Source: Nitrospira japonica
GTDB taxonomy: Bacteria > Nitrospirota > Thermodesulfovibrionia > Thermodesulfovibrionales > SM23-35
NCBI GenBank assembly: GCA_020725385.1
Contig: DYFC01000005.1
Location: forward strand, 1-12,014
Direction of reading: 5' to 3'
DNA length: 12,014 bases
The translations under genes and the position numbers were made by a program. The notes beneath the pieces are model-generated. The model searched no databases, was not told the origin of the DNA, and worked only from the letters and a program-made list of their open reading frames with translations. Shown here one piece after another: positions 1 through 12,014 of this stretch (within the stretch, counting starts at the first letter, position 1; every line of letters begins with the position of its first letter).

Positions 1-19
1 TAGTCTAAAATGTTATGTA

Positions 20-49
20 TTGACATATTTAAACAGCTTTTATTATCTT
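20..49 (+). promoter_or_regulatory. sigma70-type promoter, -35 TTGACA (20-25) and -10 TATCTT (44-49)
   Basis: Perfect -35 hexamer, 18-nt spacer, TAnnnT -10. The same geometry recurs at 11745-11774 ahead of a second copy of the same RNA element. Confidence 0.7.
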
Positions 50-56
50 AAATACA

Positions 57-160
57 CGCTGGGCAAGAAGTCCGGTATAAAGAAGAAAATTTAAAGTATA
101 CAAATTCAAAGCCACGAAGGCTGAAGATGCAATGAATGCATCAGCTTTCGTGGCTTTTTT
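57..160 (+). ncRNA. Structured 5' leader / candidate antitermination element (twin ANGAA-pentaloop hairpins plus overlapping terminator), copy 1
   Basis: P1 GCTGGGC-AAGAA-GTCCGGT (58-76), A-rich linker, P2 AGCC-ACGAA-GGCT (110-122). P2 is mutually exclusive with the terminator stem 108-122/143-157, which runs into a T-tract. Conserved with covariation at 11783-11864. Confidence 0.7.
108..160 (+). terminator. Intrinsic terminator/attenuator in the leader of the methyltransferase operon
   Basis: AAAGCCACGAAGGCT (108-122) pairs with AGCTTTCGTGGCTTT (143-157), inner stem GATGCA/TGCATC, then TTTTTTGTTTTT. It lies between the promoter and the ATG at 177. Confidence 0.8.
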
Positions 161-176
161 GTTTTTGGAGAAATAA

Positions 177-959
177 ATGAGAGAACAAAATTGCGGGATA
201 GCATCAATAGACTTCTGGGATAGGAATGCTAAGTGGTATGAACTCTGGTTGGAGCATAATCGATATCACGGTAGGATTATTGAAATCTTAAATTCCTTTG
301 TTAAACCAGGATGGAAAATACTTGATATTGGAGCCGGAAGCGGTGTTCTGTCTTTGCCTCTGGCTGAGAAAGGGTGTGTTATAACTGCTTTAGAACCATC
401 TGCGGCTATGAGAATGCTTCTCGAAAAAGAAATATCAAGAAAAGGTGTAAAATCTATCAAGATTGATTCACGAAGCTGGGAGAATATACCATTAAATGGA
501 ATAAAAAAATACGATCTTATTATTGCATCCAACAGCCTGCATCTTACATTTTATGGATTCATGACTGCATTAAAAAAGATATTTCTATCTGATGCCTCAA
601 ATGTTTTTGTTGTTTCCGAAAAACAATTTATTGAATGCCCAATTTGTGATAACTTCGAAGGATATTCTCTTTTCTTGACTGATAAATATTTAATAGAGAG
701 CTCTAATGCTTATCATTGTTTCGAAGAAGCATTTGAACACTGGTCATTCAAAAATCAAAGATTTCCTGACAAGGAAGAAAAGGATTTTATTTTATCGGAA
801 CTTGTTTATGAAAATGGCCATATATTGAAAAAAGGTACTGCAGAGGTTTGCGTTTATCGCTGGGGGAAAATAAATACGATTGATAATTTTATTCATGAAA
901 ATCTAAGGAGGGGAAACAATGAAATTAGGCGTGATTCTTTTTATTCTGCTGTTTATTAG
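177..959 (+). CDS. Class I SAM-dependent methyltransferase, substrate unknown
   Basis: 260-aa ORF with motif I ILDIGAGSG, post-I ALEPS and YDLIIAS. GGAG RBS at 167-170. Confidence 0.88.
   Translation: MREQNCGIASIDFWDRNAKWYELWLEHNRYHGRIIEILNSFVKPGWKILDIGAGSGVLSLPLAEKGCVITALEPSAAMRMLLEKEISRKGVKSIKIDSRSWENIPLNGIKKYDLIIASNSLHLTFYGFMTALKKIFLSDASNVFVVSEKQFIECPICDNFEGYSLFLTDKYLIESSNAYHCFEEAFEHWSFKNQRFPDKEEKDFILSELVYENGHILKKGTAEVCVYRWGKINTIDNFIHENLRRGNNEIRRDSFYSAVY
746..794 (+). repeat. 49-bp direct repeat, copy A (inside the methyltransferase CDS)
   Basis: ATTCAAAAATCAAAGATTTCCTGACAAGGAAGAAAAG[G]ATTTTATTTTA matches 9019-9067 at 48/49 positions. Confidence 0.92.
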
Positions 960-3009
960 TTCATTTTCTTTTGCAGAAGAACAAAAATTGGGAGATGATA
1001 CAAAGATATTTCAGCTCGATGAAATAACGATTTCAGAAAGTGAAATCAAAGAAGAATTAAAAACACCGAATATGACTGTAATCTTACCTGAATTGATTTT
1101 GCAGGGCATTGGCTCAACCCCTGATTCTGCATTGAGTCGTCAACCAGGCATTGACGTCCAGAGACCGCAGGAGGTTGGTGCAGCACTTGATGATGATTCA
1201 ATAAAGATCAGAGGCTTTGGATCACGCCGAATTCTTGTAACTATCGATGGTAGAACAATGAATATATCAGGGACAGCAGGTGGATATTTTATAGACTGGA
1301 CAACAATCCCACTTAATAATATAGAAAAAATTGAGGTAATTAAAGGTGTAAGCGATCCTCGTTATAGCAACACACTCGGTGGTGTTATAAATCTTGTTAC
1401 GAAAAAACCCAAAGAAGAACCTATATTCGAACTTCAGGGACTTGTTGCGAGCTTTGATACATATACAACCAGTTTTTTTCATGCATGGAAGCCGGGGAAA
1501 TTTGAATATTCACTTAGTGGAGGATATTCAGAAAGTAACGGTTATCTCAGAAATGGTGATTACTGGCTAAAGAATGCAAATGTAAATATCGGTTATGAAT
1601 TGCCATGGAACGGAAAAATAACAGGGAGTCTGCAATATATAAATGTTAAAAAAGGTTTTATAGTTTCGAATAGAAGATCAAAAGACTATGATGACCCTGA
1701 TTATGAAGAGCCGATTAACAGTTCATATCCAGCATCTGATGGCGAGATAATGTATGGAGGAATGGGAGCATATCCTGAGCCAGGAAGCTGGTGGAAAAAA
1801 GAAAAATATTATATCAATATTGGATATGAACAGAATTTTTCAAATAGTAATTTGAATCTTAATTACTGGTGGAATCATGGGGACAGGGAAGCTTACAACA
1901 CAAGAGTGTCTCTTGGAAGAGTTTTTCATAAAAAATTTTATGATGATCGCTCATTCGGTTTCGATGCTGGATATACGCTCTTTTTGAAAAAACAAACTAT
2001 TACGATTGGTGGAGATTTTAAAAGATTCAAAGATAATGGTGATAGAAACTATTCTGATGATTACAGAGAACCATTTAGAAATGGCAATTATGTAAACTCA
2101 AAAATTGTTGGATTATATCTGATGGATGATTATGAAATATCGGGCAAATTTATCATATCTCCAGGCTTGAGATATGTTTCATATGATGGAAATGTAGGGC
2201 CCGCGGGAAAAGCTGAAGGGATTGAAGAAATATCAATGGACGGAATAGCTCCTTCATTAAAAGTAACTCTCAATTACGATAAAAATACACTGGCATATTT
2301 AAGCATTGCACGTGCTCTGAGAATGCCAACTCCTCCAGAACATTACTGGCATTATTCTCCAGATGCAGGTGTTAATACATCAAATCTTCCTTTTAAGAAA
2401 GAAGATGGAATAATGATACAGGGGGGTCTTAAATCTGAATTCCCTTCAAAGACAAGAGTCGAAGTTTCTCCTTATTATTACATAATCGAAGACTACATAC
2501 AGTTCGATCTCATAAACTTTGTCTCTTATAATATCAGCAAAGCAATAATATATGGTGTAGAATTGGAAATTGCACAACAACTTGGCAAAGGCTTTTCTGC
2601 ATTTATCAATTATACCTATCAAAGAAGTAAGACAGAAGGTGACCCTTTTGTAAATAATTTTGTTTATTCTGAGGATAGAGACTTTGATGAAATACCAGGG
2701 TTACCAGAACATAAAATTAATATGGGATTTCAGTATAAAGGGAAGAATAAGGAGAAATTTACAATTTATGCAAAATATGTATCGGATCAGAGTGTAATAT
2801 ATAATAACAATACGCTCTATAACACCGAACTTAGAGTTCGCAAGCAGGATTCATTTATAACTGCTGATATTGAAGCTTCATATCCAATTACAAAAAATCT
2901 TGAAGTAACAGGTTACATACATAATATTTTTGATAAAGATTATCAGGAACGCTTCGGTTTTACAGCTGCGGGAAGAAATTTTGGGATAGGAATGAAGGCC
3001 GTCTTTTAG
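919..3009 (+). CDS. TonB-dependent outer-membrane receptor 1
   Basis: 696 aa. Signal peptide, plug motifs IRGFGSRRILVTIDG and IEKIEVIKG...GGVINLVTK, C-terminal NIFDKDY...GRNFGIGMKAVF ending in Phe. RBS AAGGAGG at 905-911. Overlaps the end of the methyltransferase ORF by 41 nt. Confidence 0.93.
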   Translation: MKLGVILFILLFISSFSFAEEQKLGDDTKIFQLDEITISESEIKEELKTPNMTVILPELILQGIGSTPDSALSRQPGIDVQRPQEVGAALDDDSIKIRGFGSRRILVTIDGRTMNISGTAGGYFIDWTTIPLNNIEKIEVIKGVSDPRYSNTLGGVINLVTKKPKEEPIFELQGLVASFDTYTTSFFHAWKPGKFEYSLSGGYSESNGYLRNGDYWLKNANVNIGYELPWNGKITGSLQYINVKKGFIVSNRRSKDYDDPDYEEPINSSYPASDGEIMYGGMGAYPEPGSWWKKEKYYINIGYEQNFSNSNLNLNYWWNHGDREAYNTRVSLGRVFHKKFYDDRSFGFDAGYTLFLKKQTITIGGDFKRFKDNGDRNYSDDYREPFRNGNYVNSKIVGLYLMDDYEISGKFIISPGLRYVSYDGNVGPAGKAEGIEEISMDGIAPSLKVTLNYDKNTLAYLSIARALRMPTPPEHYWHYSPDAGVNTSNLPFKKEDGIMIQGGLKSEFPSKTRVEVSPYYYIIEDYIQFDLINFVSYNISKAIIYGVELEIAQQLGKGFSAFINYTYQRSKTEGDPFVNNFVYSEDRDFDEIPGLPEHKINMGFQYKGKNKEKFTIYAKYVSDQSVIYNNNTLYNTELRVRKQDSFITADIEASYPITKNLEVTGYIHNIFDKDYQERFGFTAAGRNFGIGMKAVF

Positions 3010-4587
3010 ATGAAAATAATATTATCTGCAATTTGTTCAATAGTATTTTTATTTTCTCTTTATGGATGTAAAGAGAATATAGAAAGACAAAAATTTTTTG
3101 AGAACACATTAGTTGTCGCTCTTTCTTCAGAACCTTTAAGTCTTAATCCTGTTTATCTTTCTGATCTCATCTCATTCACGGTAAGCGAGCTTATTTTTAG
3201 AGGACTTGTTAAATTTGATAAAGATATGAAAATCATCCCTGATCTTGCTGAATCATGGGAGATTCTCAATAATGGCAAGGAAATTAAATTCAAGTTGAAA
3301 AAAGGGGTTCTCTGGCATGATGGTACTGAATTTACTTCAAATGATGTTATTTTTACGTATCTAACTGTAATTTCACCAAAGACTTCAACACATCTCGCTG
3401 AAGTCTTTGGTCCTTTAAAAAATGTTATTGCTTTAGACCGATATACAGTGCTTGTTCGTTACAACGAGCCTTACGGTTCTGCCCTTGAAAGCTGGCGTAT
3501 AGGAATAATTCCTGAACATGTCTTTCGCAATGGGGAAACAAACATTGTCTCTTTCGATGAATCACCAATTGGCACAGGACCATATAAACTCAAAAAATGG
3601 GAACACGGGGCAAAGATTATTCTTGAATCTTTTGACAATTATTACGGTGGCAGGCCAGGAATTAAAAACATTATTTTAAAAATTATACCCGATACATCAA
3701 CACAACTTATGGAATTGAAAACAGGCGCAATTGATGTAATGGAAATTTCACCTTTACAGTTTAATCAAGTAATGAATTCTCCCGAAATTTCAAATAATTT
3801 TAACAAATATAAGACCGGTTCATTCAGGTATGGGTTCTTAGGATTAAATATGCTTGATGAAAGATTTAGAGATAAAAGAGTAAGGCAAGCGATTAGTTAT
3901 TCAATAGATAAAAAATGGATTATTCAGTCAGTTTTTAATAATGTTGGGAGTCCCTCAACAGGTCCTTATCCACTTGAAGCATGGTATTTCAACCCTAAGG
4001 CTAAATATTATGATTACAACCCTGCCAAAGCTATTGATTTATTAAAAGATGCAGGTTGGCAAAAGGGGGAAAACGGGGCATTATACAAAAATAATGTTCC
4101 GTTTTTTTTTACTATATTCACAAATTTTGAGAACAAAGAAAATTTAAAAATAGCACAAATTATACAGGATAATCTCAAAAAAATAGGGATAAAAACAGAA
4201 ATACAAACTTTTGAATGGCAGACCTTCAGGCATAATGTGGTTAGCAAACATCAGTTTGAAGCTATTATTCTATCACGAGCGTATCTCTGGGATCCTGATA
4301 TATATGATTTATGGCATTCAAGCAAGACAGACGAAGGAGAATGGAATTTTTTATCATACAAAAACCCTGTAATAGATAATCTTCTTGAAAAAGGGAGAAA
4401 AACTATTAATCAATATGAACGAAAAAAAATTTACCAAAAAGTTCAAGAAATTCTTGCTGAAGATCAAGCATCTATATTTCTCTATAATACAGAATTACTT
4501 TTTTTAGCCCATAAGAAAATTAAGGGCATTGTGCCTTCACCCGCAGGAATTCTTCATGATATTGAAAAATGGTATATAGAGCTATAA
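3010..4587 (+). CDS. ABC transporter solute-binding lipoprotein, family 5 (OppA/DppA/NikA-like)
   Basis: 525 aa. Lipobox LYGC (Cys20), family-5 signature PDLAESW...FKLKKGVLWHDG..FTSNDV, PIGTGPY and VRQAIS. The ATG directly abuts the TAG of the upstream gene. Confidence 0.92.
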   Translation: MKIILSAICSIVFLFSLYGCKENIERQKFFENTLVVALSSEPLSLNPVYLSDLISFTVSELIFRGLVKFDKDMKIIPDLAESWEILNNGKEIKFKLKKGVLWHDGTEFTSNDVIFTYLTVISPKTSTHLAEVFGPLKNVIALDRYTVLVRYNEPYGSALESWRIGIIPEHVFRNGETNIVSFDESPIGTGPYKLKKWEHGAKIILESFDNYYGGRPGIKNIILKIIPDTSTQLMELKTGAIDVMEISPLQFNQVMNSPEISNNFNKYKTGSFRYGFLGLNMLDERFRDKRVRQAISYSIDKKWIIQSVFNNVGSPSTGPYPLEAWYFNPKAKYYDYNPAKAIDLLKDAGWQKGENGALYKNNVPFFFTIFTNFENKENLKIAQIIQDNLKKIGIKTEIQTFEWQTFRHNVVSKHQFEAIILSRAYLWDPDIYDLWHSSKTDEGEWNFLSYKNPVIDNLLEKGRKTINQYERKKIYQKVQEILAEDQASIFLYNTELLFLAHKKIKGIVPSPAGILHDIEKWYIEL

Positions 4588-4702
4588 GTTTTACTGAAAC
4601 ATATAAATTGTGTAACATGAGTCATCAAGTAATAAACCCGAACAATACAACGATTGTTCAAATAGTGCAAAAAATGAAATGTAAATACAAAAATGTTAGA
4701 TT

Positions 4703-4795
4703 GTTATTCTCTGGCATACCCAGAGAATCCAATGCCTTTTTCTGGGTTAGCCGATCCCGCCACAAAAACGGCGGGCAGGCAAGTAGGGTAATGAC
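4703..4795. repeat. REP-like GC-rich palindromic element (degenerate)
   Basis: Ends GTTATT...AATGAC can pair. Internal hairpins ATTCTCTGG/CCAGAGAAT (4706-4728) and CCCGCC-N8-GGCGGG (4756-4775). GC-rich island in AT-rich intergenic DNA. Only one copy in the window, so repeat status is inferred. Confidence 0.4.
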
Positions 4796-4876
4796 GGTTG
4801 TATCCAGATTTATAGCTATCTTAGTAAGAAGAACAATTATTTTATCCGGACAAATGCTAATCCTCCGGAATATGAA

Positions 4877-4908
4877 GGGTGCGGGAGAAGTCCTGCACCC
4901 AATTTTTT
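4877..4908 (+). terminator. Probable intrinsic terminator
   Basis: GGGTGCGGGA-GAAG-TCCTGCACCC 10-bp stem followed by AATTTTTT. Confidence 0.6.
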
Positions 4909-5151
4909 ATGATGAAGGCAAATAACTCGAATAATACAGGGGTTATTAATAAATAGCCCGGGAAATACAGTTGGAGATTCTGAATCAACTCTTGGTAAAG
5001 CTTGAAACTGGATTAATGACACAAGACTTACATAGTTTTATCAATTAAACATACCATCTGACTTGATGAGAGGGTTTAGGAAGGAGGTGATTACAAAGAA
5101 AATTTAATATTCAAAAAATAAAATTAAAAATTATAAATGCAAAATTTAAAA

Positions 5152-5244
5152 CTCGGGGCAGGGTTGGTCTTTTGCGAGGACACCCTGCCCGTCGGGTAAC
5201 GCTGCGAAACACAACGCCCCTTTTAATTTTAACAGAAAGGGGTG
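5152..5244 (+). promoter_or_regulatory. Two GC-rich hairpins in the 5' region of TonB receptor 2
   Basis: GGGCAGGGT/ACCCTGCCC (5156-5164/5182-5190) with an inner stem, and CGCCCCTTTT/GAAAGGGGTG (5215-5224/5235-5244), just upstream of RBS AAGGAGG (5253-5259). Function unknown. Confidence 0.45.
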
Positions 5245-5273
5245 AGAAGAAAAAGGAGGAGGGATAAGTCATA

Positions 5274-7361
5274 ATGAAAAAAATTAATATCTTATTTGTT
5301 GTTTGGTTCTTATTGTTATTTGTATTTTGTTATAAAGATTTTAATGCTTTTGCTCAAGAACAAAACAAGGATGTAAATGAAAACACTACCTTATCTATAC
5401 AACAAGAAAAAGATAAAAAAGAAGTTTATGAACAAAGCAAGCAAAAATTAGTTCCAGGTCCGGGAGAAGTTTTTATGAATATAGGGGAAGTTGTAGTCGA
5501 AACTACAAGTGCAACTGTATCTAACGTTGATCTTCCCGGCTCTGTTGATGTAATTGGTGAAGACCAGTTAAGAAAAGAAATAACTAACAATTCCCTTGAA
5601 CTACTAAGGCGCATACCTGGTTTTATCTATCGAGATTATGGTAACGGTGGTGTGCCGAATGGTTTTACAATGCGAGGGTTCAATAGCAATCATGGCAGCG
5701 ATAATCTGGTCACAATAGATGGAATTCCAATCAATGACCATTTTTGGCAAGAAGATGGAGCCCCTGATTTTAATCAACTGACTGCAGAGGAAATAGAAAA
5801 TATAACTGTTATAAAAGGACCTATTGATGCAAGATATGGCAATTGGGGCAGAGCTGGAATCGTTAATATTGAAACTCGCAAACGTGGGGATTTTTTAAAA
5901 TCTTCTTTATCGTTAGGTAGCTGGGGAACACGTAAGGCTTATGTGAGTTTCGGAAGTGAACATTTCGATAATAAATTCAATCAAGTTTATTCTGTAGAGT
6001 ATTTTGATACAGACGCATGGAGAGAGAATAGCGAACAAAAAAGACAGAATGCTTATGCTAAATGGTATTACAGACCATTCAGTGGAATTCAATTAGGGCT
6101 TCAAACTCATGTTTATAAAGCAGACTGGTCAACTGGTGGTTATATTACCGAGGAGCAATGGAAAGATGATCCAAGACAAGCATTTGATTCTGCTCAAGAC
6201 GATGGTGGTAAGAAAGAACTGCAGGAAATTTCCATGCATCTTGACTGGAATTTAAAAAAAGATATTCCTCTTGAAGCACGTTTTTGGTATAAAACAAACA
6301 AGGCGAGCAGATGGGCAGATTGGGGTGGAGGACAAACAGAAATGTTTACAAAGGAAAGTGTATGGGGTGCTCTTGCGAATATAGGGTTTTTAAGAAATTT
6401 TGGTTCTGACAGTAAAATCAGAGTTGACTCGGGATTTGACTGGCGGAGTTTTGATTCAAATTATCAGGATTGGAATACTTATGCAAGAGTGAGGACTTCA
6501 GTTAATACAGATGATGATTATATATTCAATAATTTCGGAGTATATATCAAATCAAATTACGATGTTAATAAATATTTGCGTTTATTTGCTGGTGTACGAC
6601 ATGATTATTTTTCAGGGGATACAAAAAATAATCTCACAAATGAAAAAAGGGATATGGATAATTATAATGTTACAACATACAAAGGTGGGATTATTGGTAA
6701 TATTTCCGACAGATATAGTTTATATGCCAATATAGGTACAACTTTTACTCTTCCAAGAAAAGAACTTAAATATGCAGAAGAACATCCTGATGTAACTTAT
6801 CTATTATTTAGAGAGGTCGGGTTAAAAGCAAATCCTTTGGATTGGCTTCTTGTAAGATATGCATATTTCTATAGTGATGAAGATGTTGTTGCTTTTATTG
6901 CTGGAGATTATGTTAATCAAGGAAAAGCAATACGTAAGGGTCACGAGATTGAGGTAAATATTTTTCCTTTTGAAGGTATGACTATTTTTTCTTCTTTAAC
7001 ATTAGACAATTCTAAATTCGACGGGGGGACTAATGATGGCAATTGGGTGACTTCAGTTCCAGAATATATCTGGAATACAGGTATACAATATGATTCGATA
7101 TATGGCACGGGTGCGAGATTGTGGTATCGATCTGTCGGAAAATGGTATACGGATAGCTCAAATGAACATAGTTACAAAGGTTATAAAACTGCTGATTTGA
7201 CAGTTTATCATACTTTTGCAGATAAATGGACAGTATCATTTGATATAAAAAATCTGTTCAATCAGAAGTATGCTGAATTTGTTGGCTTCTGGAGTGGGTC
7301 GAATCAATATATGAGTAGTAACCCGAGAGGATACTATGTAACATTAAAATACAATATGTAA
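5274..7361 (+). CDS. TonB-dependent outer-membrane receptor 2, likely metal (Ni/Co) uptake by context
   Basis: 695 aa. Signal peptide, plug motifs LRRIPG, MRGF..NHGSDNLVTIDGIPIN and IENITVIKGP...YG..G.AGIVNI, C-terminal NLFNQKY...PRGYYVTLKYNM. Substrate inferred only from neighbours. Confidence 0.93.
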   Translation: MKKINILFVVWFLLLFVFCYKDFNAFAQEQNKDVNENTTLSIQQEKDKKEVYEQSKQKLVPGPGEVFMNIGEVVVETTSATVSNVDLPGSVDVIGEDQLRKEITNNSLELLRRIPGFIYRDYGNGGVPNGFTMRGFNSNHGSDNLVTIDGIPINDHFWQEDGAPDFNQLTAEEIENITVIKGPIDARYGNWGRAGIVNIETRKRGDFLKSSLSLGSWGTRKAYVSFGSEHFDNKFNQVYSVEYFDTDAWRENSEQKRQNAYAKWYYRPFSGIQLGLQTHVYKADWSTGGYITEEQWKDDPRQAFDSAQDDGGKKELQEISMHLDWNLKKDIPLEARFWYKTNKASRWADWGGGQTEMFTKESVWGALANIGFLRNFGSDSKIRVDSGFDWRSFDSNYQDWNTYARVRTSVNTDDDYIFNNFGVYIKSNYDVNKYLRLFAGVRHDYFSGDTKNNLTNEKRDMDNYNVTTYKGGIIGNISDRYSLYANIGTTFTLPRKELKYAEEHPDVTYLLFREVGLKANPLDWLLVRYAYFYSDEDVVAFIAGDYVNQGKAIRKGHEIEVNIFPFEGMTIFSSLTLDNSKFDGGTNDGNWVTSVPEYIWNTGIQYDSIYGTGARLWYRSVGKWYTDSSNEHSYKGYKTADLTVYHTFADKWTVSFDIKNLFNQKYAEFVGFWSGSNQYMSSNPRGYYVTLKYNM

Positions 7362-7409
7362 AGATCTACCAAGAAATTTAATTAACAATCTATAGGGAGG
7401 AAAGTTGAT

Positions 7410-8108
7410 ATGAAAAAATTATTTATATTCTTCATTATGGCTTTTTTGTCATCCGTGGTTGTTGTCTCAGCGCATGATGCGTGGATTCAAAAAAAAGGTG
7501 CTGATTTCCATATAATATACGGACATGGAAATAAACTTGAGTCCTATGATTTTTCAAAAATAAAAGAAATTAGGTCTTATGACTTATCCGGAAACTATAA
7601 AAAAGTTACACAAGAAAATGGAATAATACGAGAAATTAAAGATCCTGCTATGCTAACGATGTTTTTTGATAACGGTTATTGGGTTCAAACAACAGACGGC
7701 TGGAAAAACTTTACAAAACGTGAAGCTTTACAAAATAATTTGCAAATAGTTGTTTCAGAGAGGTCTCTAAAATTTCATAAGAACTATCTTAAATGGACTG
7801 ACAATTTTATGAAACCGATTGGTATGAAATTTGAGATTCTTCCTCTAAAGAATCCTCTGACTATGAAGCAGGGTGATATATTGCCAATAAAAGTCTTATT
7901 GGATGGTAAACCAGTAGAAAATGCTGCAATCAATACCGCTGAATCGCATGAGGCAGTTACAAAAACTGATAAGAATGGTTTTACAGAAGTAAAAATCAAA
8001 GAAAAAGGATTCTGTCTTATTAGTGCCTTTATTGAACAACCACTTGAAAATGATCCTGATGCTGAAAAATTATTTCTCAGTGCTAATATAACATTCGATT
8101 TAAAATGA
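7410..8108 (+). CDS. DUF4198 / NikK-like periplasmic nickel/cobalt transport-associated protein
   Basis: 232 aa. Signal peptide followed by AHDAWI (His at the predicted mature N-terminus), YGHG, FEILPLKNP, VLLDGKP and TDKNG, typical of DUF4198 proteins. RBS AGGGAGG at 7394-7400. Confidence 0.8.
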   Translation: MKKLFIFFIMAFLSSVVVVSAHDAWIQKKGADFHIIYGHGNKLESYDFSKIKEIRSYDLSGNYKKVTQENGIIREIKDPAMLTMFFDNGYWVQTTDGWKNFTKREALQNNLQIVVSERSLKFHKNYLKWTDNFMKPIGMKFEILPLKNPLTMKQGDILPIKVLLDGKPVENAAINTAESHEAVTKTDKNGFTEVKIKEKGFCLISAFIEQPLENDPDAEKLFLSANITFDLK

Positions 8109-8587
8109 AAAAGACACTAATATTTTTCATGCTTCTTCTGCTCCTGATATATTCAGGGGCAGAAGCACATTCTGTTCATTATCAGGTAGAAAATAAGGGA
8201 ATCAGTGTAAGAGTTTTCTATTCAGAGGATGACCCTGCGAGTTATTCAGCTTATGAGATATTTGGTCCTGAAGATAAGATTCCGTATCAGAAGGGAAGGA
8301 CAGACAAAAATGGATTTGTGTCTTTTTTACCTAATAGGAAGGGTAAATGGATAATAAATGTATATGGAGAATCGGAGCATAGTATGCATGGCGCAAGAAT
8401 TGAGGTTAATGTCAATGAAAGTCTTTATATGGAATCTTTCAAGAAACCTCTGGTAGCGAGATATACAAAAGTATTTGTTGGAGTTAGCATTCTTCTTGCG
8501 CTATTTGGCATTTGGGCGTTAACGAGGCAATTAAAACAGGGTAGAATTATAGGGAAAAGCGGTTCAAGCTCTGAATCCAAAGAATAG
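8105..8587 (+). CDS. NikL/CbiL-like exported nickel-transport accessory protein with C-terminal membrane anchor
   Basis: 160 aa. Signal peptide then AHSVH, QKGRTDKNGFVSF.P...G.W, H-S-M-H-G motif and a hydrophobic C-terminal helix (VFVGVSILLALFGIWAL). ATGA overlap with the upstream gene. Confidence 0.72.
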   Translation: MKKTLIFFMLLLLLIYSGAEAHSVHYQVENKGISVRVFYSEDDPASYSAYEIFGPEDKIPYQKGRTDKNGFVSFLPNRKGKWIINVYGESEHSMHGARIEVNVNESLYMESFKKPLVARYTKVFVGVSILLALFGIWALTRQLKQGRIIGKSGSSSESKE

Positions 8588-8745
8588 CACTGTTTTAAAT
8601 CAAACAGGATACGGGACGGTACACAAAGAATTAAACAAAAAACAGAGATGTCCGAAAATGTCTGTATTTGGTTTTGGATAATATTTATGTTGATTTTATG
8701 TTGTTTGAATGATATAAGATAATTAAAGGAAGGAGGTGATAATAG

Positions 8746-8904
8746 ATGTGTTGCCATAATAAAGATAAGCATGAGCACGAGCATGAGCATAAGGAAATAA
8801 CTCATACTCACGATGGTCATGAACATAAACATTTAGCTGAAAAACATTCTCACGAACATGTGCATGATGACCATCACAAGCACGACCATAAGTGCTGTCA
8901 CTAA
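8746..8904 (+). CDS. 52-aa His-rich putative metal-binding peptide (Hpn-like composition); absent from the ORF track
   Basis: Manual translation: MCCHNKDKHEHEHEHKEITHTHDGHEHKHLAEKHSHEHVHDDHHKHDHKCCH*. 19 His and two Cys-Cys pairs. Very strong RBS AAGGAGGTGAT (8730-8740) 5 nt before the ATG. Confidence 0.88.
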   Translation: MCCHNKDKHEHEHEHKEITHTHDGHEHKHLAEKHSHEHVHDDHHKHDHKCCH

Positions 8905-8929
8905 AGGGAAGCCATAGAGTTTAAGGAAT

Positions 8930-8990
8930 AAGCCACGAAGGCGAAAACCGTATCAGAAGATTCGGGAAAGTATTCGTGGCTTCCCTTTTT
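8930..8990 (+). terminator. Partial third copy of the leader element (P2 plus terminator, no clear P1)
   Basis: AAGCCACGAAGGC (8930-8942) retains the GCC-ACGAA-GGC hairpin. 8930-8939 pairs with TTCGTGGCTT (8973-8982), followed by CCCTTTTT. It lies between convergent genes. Confidence 0.65.
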
Positions 8991-9018
8991 ATAACATCCT
9001 GCCGTTTTTCCAAAAAGT

Positions 9019-9067
9019 ATTCAAAAATCAAAGATTTCCTGACAAGGAAGAAAAGAATTTTATTTTA
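9019..9067 (+). repeat. 49-bp direct repeat, copy B (methyltransferase-derived fragment)
   Basis: 48/49 identity to 746-794. Its last 3 nt are the stop codon of the minus-strand radical SAM gene. Confidence 0.92.
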
Positions 9068-10057
9068 CGGTTGAAAAAACTTTGATGGACCTGTAAGGAC
9101 TTTCCATTCAGCTTCGTTAAATAATTCTCTGCATTGTTGTACTGTCAATCCTCTTTTCCCTTCTGTATCTTTTTCAGTATCACGTGGATTTGAGCCAGAC
9201 TCTGCCCAGATTAAATTTGCCCCTGCAGAAATACTTATAACATTGGGTTCATGAGTACAGTTTCCGGGTATGCTGTAACCTGTTGCTAATCGCACGACTG
9301 CAACTATATGAGCCATTTTTGCCTCGCTTAATTTCCCGTATTTTTCTTTTTCTGTACCGGGTATCGGTATCCTTCGCATTGCTCCACTAAAAGCCGGCTT
9401 TATTTCTCTGGTTATGATTGTCTTCTCTACAAGTTCATCAACTGAATGTTCTTTACCTATGGGTTCTACACATGTGCCGATAGTTAAACCTGCTGCCCTG
9501 GCATTTTTAAAAGTTTGTATTCTTTTTTCAGGTGGTATTTTTGTATCCTTACCTTCACCCATCCGTACAGCATGATATATTCCTGAAAAACCAGAATCTT
9601 TCAACTTAAAAGCCTGTTTTTCAGAAAAGTCATCAACATTAGCAATAAGGATTGTATCGGGTCTTAAAGATTTTCTAACCTCCTGTGATATATCTATGAA
9701 TTTTTCAAAAGCATATCTTGCTGTTGACATAAGATAGATTGCATTAGCGCCGTCATTTTCGAACTCCATTGAACGTTTAACTACTTCTTCAACGGATAGT
9801 TCAATGGTTTCATTAAAAACCTTGTTACATGATGCAAAAGAACAAAATTTGCAGTTGCGTGGACATCGTGCTATATCAAGTCCAACCTGAGCATGAACTT
9901 CGGCAAAGCCATTCGAAGCATTTTCGCACATCTGCCTCGAAGCAGATTGAATCATGGCCCATTCGTAAGAGAATAAAGGTACTTTGAATAAGAGTTTTAT
10001 TTCTTCCGGATTGAGAATAATACCTGACAGAGCTTTTTTTATAATTTTCTTTATCAT
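9065..10057 (-). CDS. Radical SAM protein, biotin synthase-like subfamily (probably not true BioB)
   Basis: 330 aa. CxxxCxxC motif CPRNCKFC, RRIPIPGT, VAVVRL and GANLIWAE resemble BioB/HydE/PylB-like enzymes. The BioB YNHN motif is replaced by YHAV. Confidence 0.87.
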   Translation of the reverse strand: MIKKIIKKALSGIILNPEEIKLLFKVPLFSYEWAMIQSASRQMCENASNGFAEVHAQVGLDIARCPRNCKFCSFASCNKVFNETIELSVEEVVKRSMEFENDGANAIYLMSTARYAFEKFIDISQEVRKSLRPDTILIANVDDFSEKQAFKLKDSGFSGIYHAVRMGEGKDTKIPPEKRIQTFKNARAAGLTIGTCVEPIGKEHSVDELVEKTIITREIKPAFSGAMRRIPIPGTEKEKYGKLSEAKMAHIVAVVRLATGYSIPGNCTHEPNVISISAGANLIWAESGSNPRDTEKDTEGKRGLTVQQCRELFNEAEWKVLTGPSKFFQP

Positions 10058-10137
10058 ACGTTATAGTAATTAAAATAACCTTTCAAATGAAATAAAATCT
10101 AATTGATTTAAATAATATATTTTAGATTAGAAATAGA

Positions 10138-10314
10138 TTATATGAATTCTAAGGGAGGTATGCCTACTTTTTGAAGTATTAATTTTATAATTTTCTTTGC
10201 ATCTCTTTTATCCTTTGCTACAAAGGGTCTCTTTTTTCTTACTACCCATGGCTTGTTACCCTTAACCTGCTGGTGATGTCCTAACCTGAATGAGGGATTA
10301 CAATTGACAGACAA
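10138..10314 (-). pseudogene. Possible HicA-like toxin remnant / small ORF lacking an ATG
   Basis: Open frame 10374-10138 on the minus strand ending ...GHHQQVKGNKPWVVRKKRPFVAKDKRDAKKIIKLILQKVGIPPLEFI*. The C-terminus resembles HicA (IL.QAGI...EF). Only a TTG start is available and there is no RBS. Confidence 0.2.
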
Positions 10315-10501
10315 CGTTTTTGATGATATGCTTTTTTGTAACTTGCTGGGTTTATATTGATTTTTAATAGTATTTTAACAAAGAGCGGAGAATTATCGTA
10401 TGAAAAAGACTTTGCTCATTAAACATAGGAATCAATTGTTTGTTGATCGCTTATATGTTCCTATCTCCAATAGACTCATTAATTTCTGTTAAAATAAAAA
10501 C

Positions 10502-11644
10502 ATGAGAAAAAAGATTTTCGAATTATCTCTTTTCATTTTTGTTCTCTCTTTAATTTTCATTTCGGGAAATACTATCGCAGATTCAATTGATATATCGGTA
10601 GCTGATGGTGACAGAGTTGGTGTTGAAGTTTGGATAGGAGGGCTTGAGATACCATGGTCTCTTAAATTTCTTCCAGACGGAAGAGCCCTTGTAAGTGAAA
10701 GACCCGGCCGGATCAGATTGATCAAAAATGGAATCCTTCAAAAAAACCCTTATGCAGAAATAGACGTTGCTCATGTAGGAGAAGGAGGGCTTTTGGGATT
10801 AGCTGTCCATACCGAATTTCCTATAAAGCCTTATATATATGCAATGCACACATATAAAAAAGGCAACTCGCTTTTAAACAGGGTAATAAGACTCAAAGAT
10901 ATGGGAGATCGAGGAAAATTTGACAAAGTGATTATTGATAATATTCCCGGTGGCAGATTTCATAATGGTGGACGGATTGAATTTGGACCTGATGGAATGC
11001 TCTATATAACGACTGGTGAGATTTTTGATTCAAATCTTGCGCAAGATCTGAAGTCGCTTGGAGGAAAAATCTTGCGCGTTACTCCAGAGGGTGAAATTCC
11101 GCAAGACAATCCATTTAAAGATTCACCTATTTATTCGTATGGACACAGAAACCCACAGGGTCTTGCATGGTATCCTGAAACAGGTGAACTCTTCTCCTCA
11201 GAACACGGACCTTCCGGAGAATTCCTCAGATTCGGCAACGACGAGATAAATTTAATTAAAAAAGGTGGAAATTACGGATGGCCTGAGGTGATAGGTATCA
11301 AGAAAAAGACACCCTATGTTGATCCACTGATATTATGGGAAAAGACAACCCCTCCATCAGGTATGACTTTTTACAGTGCTAATAAATTGTCGCATCTTAA
11401 AAATGACCTCTTCGTGGCGACCTTAAGAAGTGAATGCATAGTAAGAATAAAGCTTTTAAAGTCTTCAAATGGTTTCAAAGTATTGAGGATGGAAAGGTGG
11501 TTTGAGAATAAATATGGAAGGATAAGAGATGTTGTTCAGGGTACTGACGGGCTTATCTATTTTTTGACGAATAACAGGGATGGAAGAGGAAAGCCCCGAG
11601 ATGGCGACGACAGAATTTATAGAATAATACCCCTCACAAAATAG
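10502..11644 (+). CDS. PQQ-dependent sugar dehydrogenase (glucose/sorbosone dehydrogenase, GSDH family), exported
   Basis: 380 aa. Signal peptide, GLEIPW, VSERPGRI, GEGGLLG, HNGGRIEFGPDGMLY, GHRNPQG, GGNYGWP and GRIRDV. Confidence 0.92.
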   Translation: MRKKIFELSLFIFVLSLIFISGNTIADSIDISVADGDRVGVEVWIGGLEIPWSLKFLPDGRALVSERPGRIRLIKNGILQKNPYAEIDVAHVGEGGLLGLAVHTEFPIKPYIYAMHTYKKGNSLLNRVIRLKDMGDRGKFDKVIIDNIPGGRFHNGGRIEFGPDGMLYITTGEIFDSNLAQDLKSLGGKILRVTPEGEIPQDNPFKDSPIYSYGHRNPQGLAWYPETGELFSSEHGPSGEFLRFGNDEINLIKKGGNYGWPEVIGIKKKTPYVDPLILWEKTTPPSGMTFYSANKLSHLKNDLFVATLRSECIVRIKLLKSSNGFKVLRMERWFENKYGRIRDVVQGTDGLIYFLTNNRDGRGKPRDGDDRIYRIIPLTK

Positions 11645-11744
11645 ATTTTTTAAAATATTTCTATTTCGAATTTCTTTTGATAGCTTGAATGCTTATTAAA
11701 TAACTTTCTTTAAAAAACCAAGATTTAGTAAATGATGCTTAAAC

Positions 11745-11774
11745 TTGACAAAAATTACACATATCAGGTACTTT
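11745..11774 (+). promoter_or_regulatory. sigma70-type promoter, -35 TTGACA (11745-11750) and -10 TACTTT (11769-11774)
   Basis: Perfect -35 and 18-nt spacer, same layout as 20-49, immediately before leader copy 2. Confidence 0.7.
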
Positions 11775-11782
11775 AATTAAAA

Positions 11783-11864
11783 CTACGGGCAAGAAGTTCG
11801 TAGCAGAAAGAGAATAGTAAACCACGAAGGTTTTGTGCTTAATGACATGCTTTCGTGGTTTTTT
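11783..11864 (+). ncRNA. Structured RNA element (twin ANGAA-pentaloop hairpins plus overlapping terminator), copy 2
   Basis: P1 CTACGGGC-AAGAA-GTTCGTAG (11783-11803), P2 AAACC-ACGAA-GGTTT (11819-11833), terminator stem 11819-11831/11849-11861 with T-tract to 11864. Confidence 0.7.
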
Positions 11865-12014
11865 ATTTAACCCAAGAAATGCAGATATTGCTCAAAAATT
11901 TATTTAACTCGATGATTCTTATATCAAAAGATATTTTTTGGTTATATAAAAAAAGTTCATGGTAAATCATCTTTAAACGTACACTAAGGTATCGAAAAAT
12001 AAATTTTTTCGCAA

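Follow-up and report, generated by a model that had tools for sequence, protein, structure and literature searches.

The window analysed here (the whole stretch of 12,014 nt, positions 1 to 12,014 of the forward strand of contig DYFC01000005.1, assembly GCA_020725385.1, Nitrospira japonica) holds a cluster of uptake genes and, 158 bp beyond it, a very short gene for a histidine- and cysteine-rich peptide (8746–8904, + strand; 52 codons and a TAA stop), which is followed by a structured 3′ untranslated region (3′UTR). The predicted product, MCCHNKDKHEHEHEHKEITHTHDGHEHKHLAEKHSHEHVHDDHHKHDHKCCH, contains 19 His, 7 Lys, 7 Glu, 5 Asp and 4 Cys residues; its histidines form 11 overlapping HxH triplets with a single HH, and Cys-Cys pairs occupy residues 2–3 and 50–51. 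The original prediction, made from the letters alone, had described a 52-residue open reading frame (ORF) with 19 histidines mostly in HxH spacing, beginning with MCCH and ending with KCCH, and all of these features are present. It had set the start at 8727, but that region is 5′UTR with the ribosome-binding site, and the coding sequence begins at 8746. The extended Shine-Dalgarno sequence that it had named is found as GGAGGTGA (8732–8739, + strand), 6 nt 5′ of the ATG; GAGGTGA is invariant in six sequences from the window's taxonomic family, and a GGAGG-type site is present at nearly all loci.

Upstream, sequence reading and alignment identify a promoter-like site (8690–8718, + strand) composed of TTGATT (8690–8695), a 17-nt spacer ending in TGa, and TATAAG (8713–8718). 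This block aligns with TTGACT-N17-TATA(A/C)A in relatives from the same family and with TTGACA-N17-TATAAT-like sites at Desulfobacterota loci; a simple promoter scan did not list it because the rule of that scan demands a T as the last base of the −10 element. In a six-genome DNA alignment, the conserved block runs from near the −35 element through the ORF to a T-run ~85 nt past the stop, and the sequences flanking it are unrelated between genomes. The gene had been placed at the end of a nickel-uptake cluster; with its own promoter-like site, ribosome-binding site and terminator, and with only that block conserved between differing flanks, it is instead, as far as can be read from the DNA, a self-contained unit.

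Conservation and coding character of the peptide gene

The search for homologues in related genomes, with attention to synteny, that had been proposed along with the original prediction recovered conserved MCCH...CCH homologues. A six-frame search of 41 related genomes returned full-length copies in four others, at 85–88% identity, one of which has two copies and a broken third; every copy starts with MCCH and ends with CCH. Across the window's family (Thermodesulfovibrionales-type Nitrospirota), full-length MCCH...CCH homologues are present in 9 of 57 genomes and 6 of 26 genera, and an even 401-genome sample of the phylum yielded full-length matches in three genomes only, all from this family, with two additional weak partial matches within longer frames. 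A back-translated pattern scan over one genome per species led to 35 confirmed loci, and the MCCH...CCH frame is intact in 33 of them. The 53-residue form occurs in metagenome-assembled genomes (MAGs) titled Thermodesulfovibrionales, Nitrospiraceae or Nitrospira; a form of 53 to 55 residues in MAGs titled delta proteobacterium, Desulfobacca, Desulfobaccales, Syntrophobacterales, Desulfobacterales or Thermodesulfobacteriota; and an archaeal form of 38 residues in three Methanotrichaceae MAGs. In the phylum of one of the Desulfobacterota-type loci (L036), 17 of 401 sampled genomes carry the peptide (E ≤ 1e-5), and in the archaeal class sample, where the short form scores near the threshold, 1 of 201 genomes scores, namely the query genome itself.

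In a 34-row alignment spanning the two bacterial phyla and the archaeal family, M1, C2, C3 and H4, E37, and C50, C51 and H52 are invariant, as are twelve internal histidines, including residues 9, 11, 13, 15, 34, 36, 38, 40, 44, 46 and 48. Substitutions within the frame are of the coding type: 29 distinct sequences of 53 codons differ at 52 of the third positions but at 20 of the first and 19 of the second, and the mean proportions of nonsynonymous (pN) and synonymous (pS) differences over 406 pairs are 0.144 and 0.867 (pN/pS 0.165), with pS near saturation. This combination of third-position variation and low pN/pS is the signature of a translated, constrained frame, and on this evidence 8746–8904 (+) is a real conserved gene, well beyond chance.

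Annotation misses this conserved peptide gene, which had been described as unannotated from the outset. The peptide matches no Pfam family at E ≤ 0.01 and no PDB chain at E ≤ 10; no NCBIfam family is matched at E ≤ 1 by the form in the window, a Desulfobacterota form or an archaeal form; and a word-indexed protein search with the peptide gave no candidates. An exact look-up in a collection of 15 billion proteins found none of six peptide sequences on record, against 9 of 10 neighbouring proteins in a control look-up in the same collection, several of them with NCBI accessions. In one record, the accession numbers of the DUF4198 and radical S-adenosylmethionine (SAM) neighbours are two apart, which would leave one number for the intervening ORF and none for the peptide. 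A profile hidden Markov model search of 1.84 billion representatives returned four weak matches at E ≤ 0.001, of which three (P0002–P0004) are N-terminal pieces running out of frame and the fourth, P0005, joins a segment related to the His-rich core to a heavy-metal-associated (HMA) domain (Pfam E 4.3e-11), a further link to metals. The nearest clusters in the ESM Atlas are sets of 53-residue ‘hypothetical protein’ entries with 76 and 50 members (scores 0.94 and 0.88); the peptide gene may therefore already be called in some metagenome catalogues. A literature search at the level of titles and abstracts found no description of this peptide or its RNA; the stated subject of PMC11247825 is the His-rich loop of RcnA. 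The idea that gene callers pick the antisense frame instead was tried and set aside, as none of eight antisense ORFs, with starts chosen by the analyst, is on record.

Several further His-rich frames were seen beside or away from the capped peptide. Directly upstream of the capped gene at three loci lie Cys-less His-rich paralogues of 96, 51 and 85 residues (L031:5472–5762, L046:5638–5793 and L047:4687–4944, respectively), the first of which resembles a tandem duplication of the core. A match to the His-rich core at G536:C4:168025–168177 falls inside a 212-residue open frame.

An RNA module behind the peptide gene and before uptake operons

The 3′UTR is more conserved than synonymous sites in the six-genome alignment. 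Its first element, the 5′ strand of helix P1 (GGGAAGCCA; 8906–8914, + strand), begins 1 nt past the stop and pairs with 8977–8985 in both the minimum-energy fold and the RNAalifold consensus; the family form of this strand, GG(G/A)AAGCCA, begins 1–2 nt past the stop in all 29 aligned bacterial loci. This outer helix is 96% paired, and an AU/GC swap, a single event, separates the two phyla. The next element, AAGCCACGAAGGC (8930–8942, + strand), is invariant in 29 of 29 3′UTRs and can form either hairpin H2 (GCC-ACGAA-GGC) or the 5′ arm of a terminator with 8973–8982; this alternative inner helix between AAGCCACGAAGGC and the 3′ arm is 100% paired. Hairpin H3 (CCGTATC-AGAA-GATTCGG; 8948–8965, + strand), found by minimum-energy folding and RNAalifold, has an AGAA loop (NGAA in the family), and four of its six pairs are changed on both sides across the 29 sequences. 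Finally, TTCGTGGCTTCCC followed by TTTTT (8973–8990, + strand) provides the 3′ arm common to both alternative helices together with the terminator U-run; its family form is TTCGTGGCTT(C/T)CC followed by Ts, which can pair with either upstream strand. The fold preferred by both RNAalifold and single-sequence prediction (−30.9 kcal/mol, z −3.6) is a three-way junction of P1, H2 and H3. The bacterial 3′UTR is thus predicted to be a conserved three-way-junction terminator, which stands behind the peptide gene in both bacterial phyla and is lacking behind the archaeal homologues.

Parts of the same module recur elsewhere in the window and the genome. The 11-mer AGCCACGAAGG is found at 8931–8941 and again at 110–120, with a third occurrence (one mismatch) at 11820–11830, and the genome contains six terminators of the form AAGCCACGAAGGC...GCTTTCGTGGCTT followed by Ts, the sixth being the one behind the peptide gene. 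The first copy in the window is a leader (58–166, + strand) before the methyltransferase/TonB-receptor/NikA-like/DUF4198/NikL-like operon and consists of a hairpin H1 with an AAGAA loop (58–76) and a terminator (AAAGCCACGAAGGC...GCTTTCGTGGCTTT and a T-run; 108–166, + strand). The copy near the far end (11783–11864, + strand) likewise has an H1 hairpin with an AAGAA loop (11783–11803) and a terminator (AACCACGAAGG...CTTTCGTGGTT and a T-run), with TTGACA at 11745–11750; the contig ends before the regulated gene. Further leader copies in this genome lie at C2:20678–20723 (−), C2:25556–25600 (−) and C6:2037–2086 (+). All five non-peptide copies combine a hairpin with a terminator and have (A)NGAA loops and an invariant GCCACGAAGGC arm; one precedes a receptor gene and two DUF4198 genes, one an OprB-like porin gene with genes for CbiM-PDGLE, CbiQ and an ABC ATPase, and one a multihaem-like/V4R gene set. 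An (A)NGAA-loop hairpin of at least 6 bp lies 18–45 nt upstream in 21 of 29 leader rows, where shuffled sequences average 0.16 and never exceed 2. These rows come from this genome and from retrieved loci; near-duplicates are among them, as are three leaders whose terminator loop itself contains the hairpin and one or more antisense readings. The 5′ arm of the leader terminator takes in H2, so H2 and the terminator cannot form together there. Rfam families, including NiCo and cobalamin, gave no match over the window at the gathering score, and permissive scans reached unrelated families only, at chance level (E 0.016 to 9.5).

A simple count of the 11-mer was discarded as family-wide evidence: 48 of 57 genomes match, but a reversed-pattern control is also frequent. 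A covariance model built from the 3′UTR (R1) was run over the 57 family genomes instead and placed 39 hits in 25 genomes. Eleven strong hits (77–96 bits) are exactly the 3′ ends of peptide genes in the 9 carrier genomes; the other 28, at 26–38 bits, are of the leader type, and 16 genomes carry leader-type hits and no peptide, which makes the RNA module older and more widespread than the peptide gene. Since the extra P1 strand was found in this search behind peptide genes only, the peptide gene appears to carry a special version of the module with an added 5′ strand. As this strand pairs with the terminator 3′ arm, termination would be independent of H2 unfolding, as would suit a gene whose downstream neighbour is convergent at most loci (20 of 33). 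Because the 3′UTR is built from the same hairpin and terminator module as the leaders of uptake operons, the peptide gene is assigned to their regulon. At three Desulfobacterota loci (L029, L030 and L039), a DUF3842 gene lies directly after the leader motif and before CbiM, divergent from the peptide gene; DUF3842 is a recurrent member of the regulon.

Genomic neighbourhood and proposed role

In the window, the first gene after the leader encodes a class I SAM methyltransferase (177–959) and overlaps by 41 nt the start of a TonB-dependent receptor gene (919–3009, + strand; Pfam). There follow a family-5 solute-binding protein of the NikA/Opp type (3010–4587, + strand; Pfam, with NCBIfam nickel_nikA at E 1.9e-52, below its cut-off), a second TonB-dependent receptor (5274–7361, + strand; Pfam), a DUF4198 protein (7410–8108, + strand; Pfam) and a 160-residue, weakly NikL-like protein (8105–8587, + strand; E 1.4e-11 and below cut-off with NF058648, the NCBIfam NikL model of a Ni/Co energy-coupling factor (ECF) subunit). 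The gap of ~690 nt between the binding-protein and second receptor genes (4588–5273) has as its sole content a program-made ORF of 118 residues (4569–4925). Downstream, a 330-residue BioB/HydE-type radical SAM gene (9065–10057, − strand; Pfam Radical_SAM, BioB 43.8 bits against a cut-off of 225) converges on the peptide gene; its orthologues (75% identity) adjoin peptide or NikL-like genes in two other genomes, with differing order and orientation. Methyltransferase genes are also found near the peptide gene at locus L023 and at the archaeal locus L042.

Neighbours were surveyed as 113 program-made ORFs, two per side of the peptide gene, at 31 loci; as these come from related genomes, the counts are descriptive. 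A CbiM, CbiQ, CbiK, DUF4198 or SBP_bac_5 gene lies within two ORFs at 16 of the 31 loci, which bears out the association with nickel uptake proposed at the outset and extends it to Ni/Co uptake genes across phyla; three further loci have only TonB, ExbBD or receptor genes and three have only an ABC ATPase.

The gene, its conservation, the purifying selection on it, the lack of an export signal, the neighbourhood and the RNA structure were all computed here, and together they make it probable that the peptide is a cytoplasmic Ni/Co-binding buffer or hand-over peptide. Its cytoplasmic location follows from the lack of a hydrophobic segment: the highest 9-residue Kyte-Doolittle mean is −1.54 and the grand average of hydropathy is −2.1, so that no signal peptide (as had been noted originally) or membrane segment is present and export by a signal peptide is excluded. 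The independently transcribed gene would give a very hydrophilic peptide of 52 residues that binds nickel and/or cobalt, with its 19 histidines, mostly in HxH spacing, offering several moderate-affinity metal sites and the Cys-Cys-His caps at both ends offering tighter thiolate/imidazole sites. By the methionine aminopeptidase rule, Cys at position 2 should permit removal of the initiator methionine; the mature chain would then open with Cys-Cys-His and have His in third place, the arrangement of amino-terminal Cu/Ni-binding motifs. The encoded sequence is M-C-C-H (invariant, 34 of 34), in which His is third only if the methionine is removed. Ions brought in by the adjacent importers (here the TonB receptors with the NikA-like, DUF4198 and NikL-like proteins; elsewhere CbiM, CbiQ and CbiO) would be taken up and buffered, and possibly passed on to chelatases or enzyme-maturation proteins, and the transcript would end in a three-way-junction terminator derived from the module that gates Ni/Co uptake operons. 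In this genome, the NikL-like and NikA-like neighbours and the fused CbiM-PDGLE importer speak somewhat for nickel; CbiK neighbours at four Desulfobacterota loci speak for cobalt, and the data do not decide between the two.

Several observations weigh against a Ni/Co buffer. No transport or chelatase family lies within two ORFs at 9 of the 31 loci, and at L011 and L012, both from the window's own genus, the peptide copies lie beside pheT. Kinship among the 31 loci means that the neighbourhood counts are not independent, and Pfam cannot tell nickel from cobalt systems. The peptide family is sparse (9 of 57, 17 of 401 and 1 of 201 genomes) and therefore dispensable. The AlphaFold2 model (34-row alignment; pLDDT 59.6, pTM 0.25), a four-strand meander, is of low confidence and says nothing on a metal site common to both termini, and none of the 22 RNA runs returned contains the stretch. 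His/Cys-rich peptides also bind zinc and copper. Moreover, the proposal passes through several steps that we infer, namely translation, metal binding through the His lattice and CCH caps, the choice of metal, removal of the methionine and delivery to partners.

An extension of this reading, which would add to the function of the peptide and not replace it, has a small chance of being correct: the transcript, taken to be abundant, may be bifunctional, a two-in-one regulator of Ni/Co supply in which the protein buffers the metal and the 3′UTR, a leader-type attenuator turned constitutive terminator, always displays the NGAA-loop hairpins H2 and H3. These would serve for feedback, as a decoy, or to give a handle on the mRNA itself. 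The constitutive terminator would leave these hairpins permanently open to a putative factor or ligand that controls antitermination in a Ni/Co riboregulon not described before; the same factor would stabilize the hairpins in the uptake leaders and so prevent termination, and the transcript would titrate or report it, feeding back on metal import. The preferred fold of the 3′UTR contains P1, H2 and H3, whereas the leaders bury H2 in the terminator; the extra strand is confined to peptide genes (11 strong R1 hits against 28 of the leader type); H2 and the H3 loop are conserved across two phyla beyond the needs of a terminator; and the promoters are near consensus. However, the candidate factor is hypothetical, and the extra strand is explained equally well if a gene with a convergent neighbour, as at 20 of 33 loci, simply has to terminate reliably. 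The archaeal homologues lack the RNA element, and the conservation of the stems is partly due to shared descent.

There is a slightly smaller chance that the peptide serves a metal other than nickel or cobalt, in buffering or detoxification of zinc or copper, or as a redox or iron-sulfur peptide. Its His/Cys composition is not specific to one metal, an ArsR-type regulator lies directly downstream at one locus (L035), and the HMA domain present in P0005 is of a type commonly associated with copper or heavy metals. By contrast, the neighbours that recur are CbiM, CbiQ, CbiK, DUF4198 and NikA-like proteins and not zinc or copper systems, and a common RNA motif marks those same Ni/Co operons.

We consider it improbable that the gene encodes the precursor of a secreted, modified scavenging peptide that would be re-imported through TonB receptors and a family-5 binding protein, by analogy with methanobactin, which is secreted to scavenge metal and then recovered by the cell. 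In the window the gene is indeed flanked by TonB receptors and a family-5 solute-binding protein, and in three related genomes it adjoins a radical SAM gene. However, this neighbour is limited to three related loci in the window's family, where its place and orientation change; no exporter or maturase family recurs among the 113 neighbouring ORFs at 31 loci; the peptide has neither a leader/core layout nor an export signal; and many loci have only cytoplasmic-membrane ECF importers.

Even less probable is a role as a leader peptide, in which translation of the His-codon-rich frame, and not its product, would select the RNA helix after the stop by classical attenuation. The strand for alternative pairing does lie 1–2 nt past the stop at 29 bacterial loci, where a terminating ribosome would cover it, and the next program-made ORF is co-directional at 13 of 33 loci; it is convergent at the other 20. 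Constraint is seen at the protein level, as residues other than histidine and both CCH ends are conserved (pN/pS 0.165), and the archaeal homologues retain the peptide and lack the RNA element.

That the frame is open by chance, or shadows a gene on the opposite strand, deserves practically no credence: that strand is likewise free of stops across the region at most loci because of CAY/GAR codon repeats, and here holds a program-made, Met/Leu/Phe-rich ORF of 135 residues (8425–8832, − strand), but variation is concentrated at third positions of the + frame, ribosome-binding site, start, stop and length are all conserved, and the antisense frames lack conserved ends, with none of the eight tried matching a recorded protein.

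Significance and relation to known systems

If the peptide is indeed a Ni/Co buffer or hand-over peptide, it would represent a new cross-domain family of free-standing metal-holding micro-proteins overlooked by gene callers, and the RNA motif, which has no Rfam family, would mark an entire Ni/Co uptake regulon. Anaerobes that rely on hydrogenases, CO dehydrogenase, corrinoids and, in the case of methanogens, F430 are limited by nickel and cobalt; to our knowledge, little is understood, a few model bacteria apart, of how such organisms hold and route these ions once imported. In practical terms, the family could enter annotation pipelines, and the peptide, whose CCH caps are chemically tractable, could be tried as a compact metal-binding tag.

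The closest counterparts in proposed function are Hpn and Hpn-2 of gastric Helicobacter, which are described in PMC4671568 as small His-rich proteins of nickel storage and trafficking. Like these proteins, the peptide is small, predicted to be cytoplasmic, very rich in histidine, equipped with Cys-Cys pairs and linked to nickel supply. It differs in matching no family model or solved chain in the comparison through profiles and PDB sequences, and none of the searches made gave a cross-hit with Hpn. Whereas long runs of consecutive histidines are a feature of Hpn and Hpn-2, those of the peptide alternate with E, K, D or T, with one HH pair and no long runs, and its Cys pairs are placed right at its ends. 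Its carriers are anaerobic Nitrospirota, Desulfobacterota and Methanotrichaceae, with a conserved structured 3′UTR in the bacterial forms.

A second comparison is with HypB, SlyD, CooJ, UreE and the cobalt chelatases, in which His/Cys-rich tails or N-terminal sites bind nickel or cobalt and pass it on. The N-terminal Cys of the peptide, which would lie beside a free amine, is reminiscent of the N-terminal site at which some HypB proteins bind nickel with high affinity. In contrast to the nickel accessory proteins and chelatases, the putative metal-binding stretch here is the entire free-standing peptide, with no GTPase, isomerase or chelatase domain attached.

For the RNA, the nearest parallel is provided by the targets of ANTAR proteins, which, as described by Ramesh et al. 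(2012; PMC3369931), consist of two hairpins with hexanucleotide loops carrying A1 and G4, the second of which competes with a terminator. The present motif similarly comprises small hairpins with conserved loop residues before operons, one of which excludes an intrinsic terminator. Its loops, by contrast, are tetra- or pentanucleotides of the form (A)NGAA with G third, the regulated genes are those of Ni/Co uptake, and one copy is a 3′UTR with an added strand; a search with PF03861 (ANTAR) gave no match in this genome or in any of 14 control genomes. The resemblance to Hpn, Hpn-2 and the tails of accessory proteins thus lies in the proposed function, and the alternating His pattern, the terminal Cys pairs, the phyletic range and the RNA set the peptide apart. 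The three-way-junction form of the RNA occurs with peptide genes only and is separated from the leader form.

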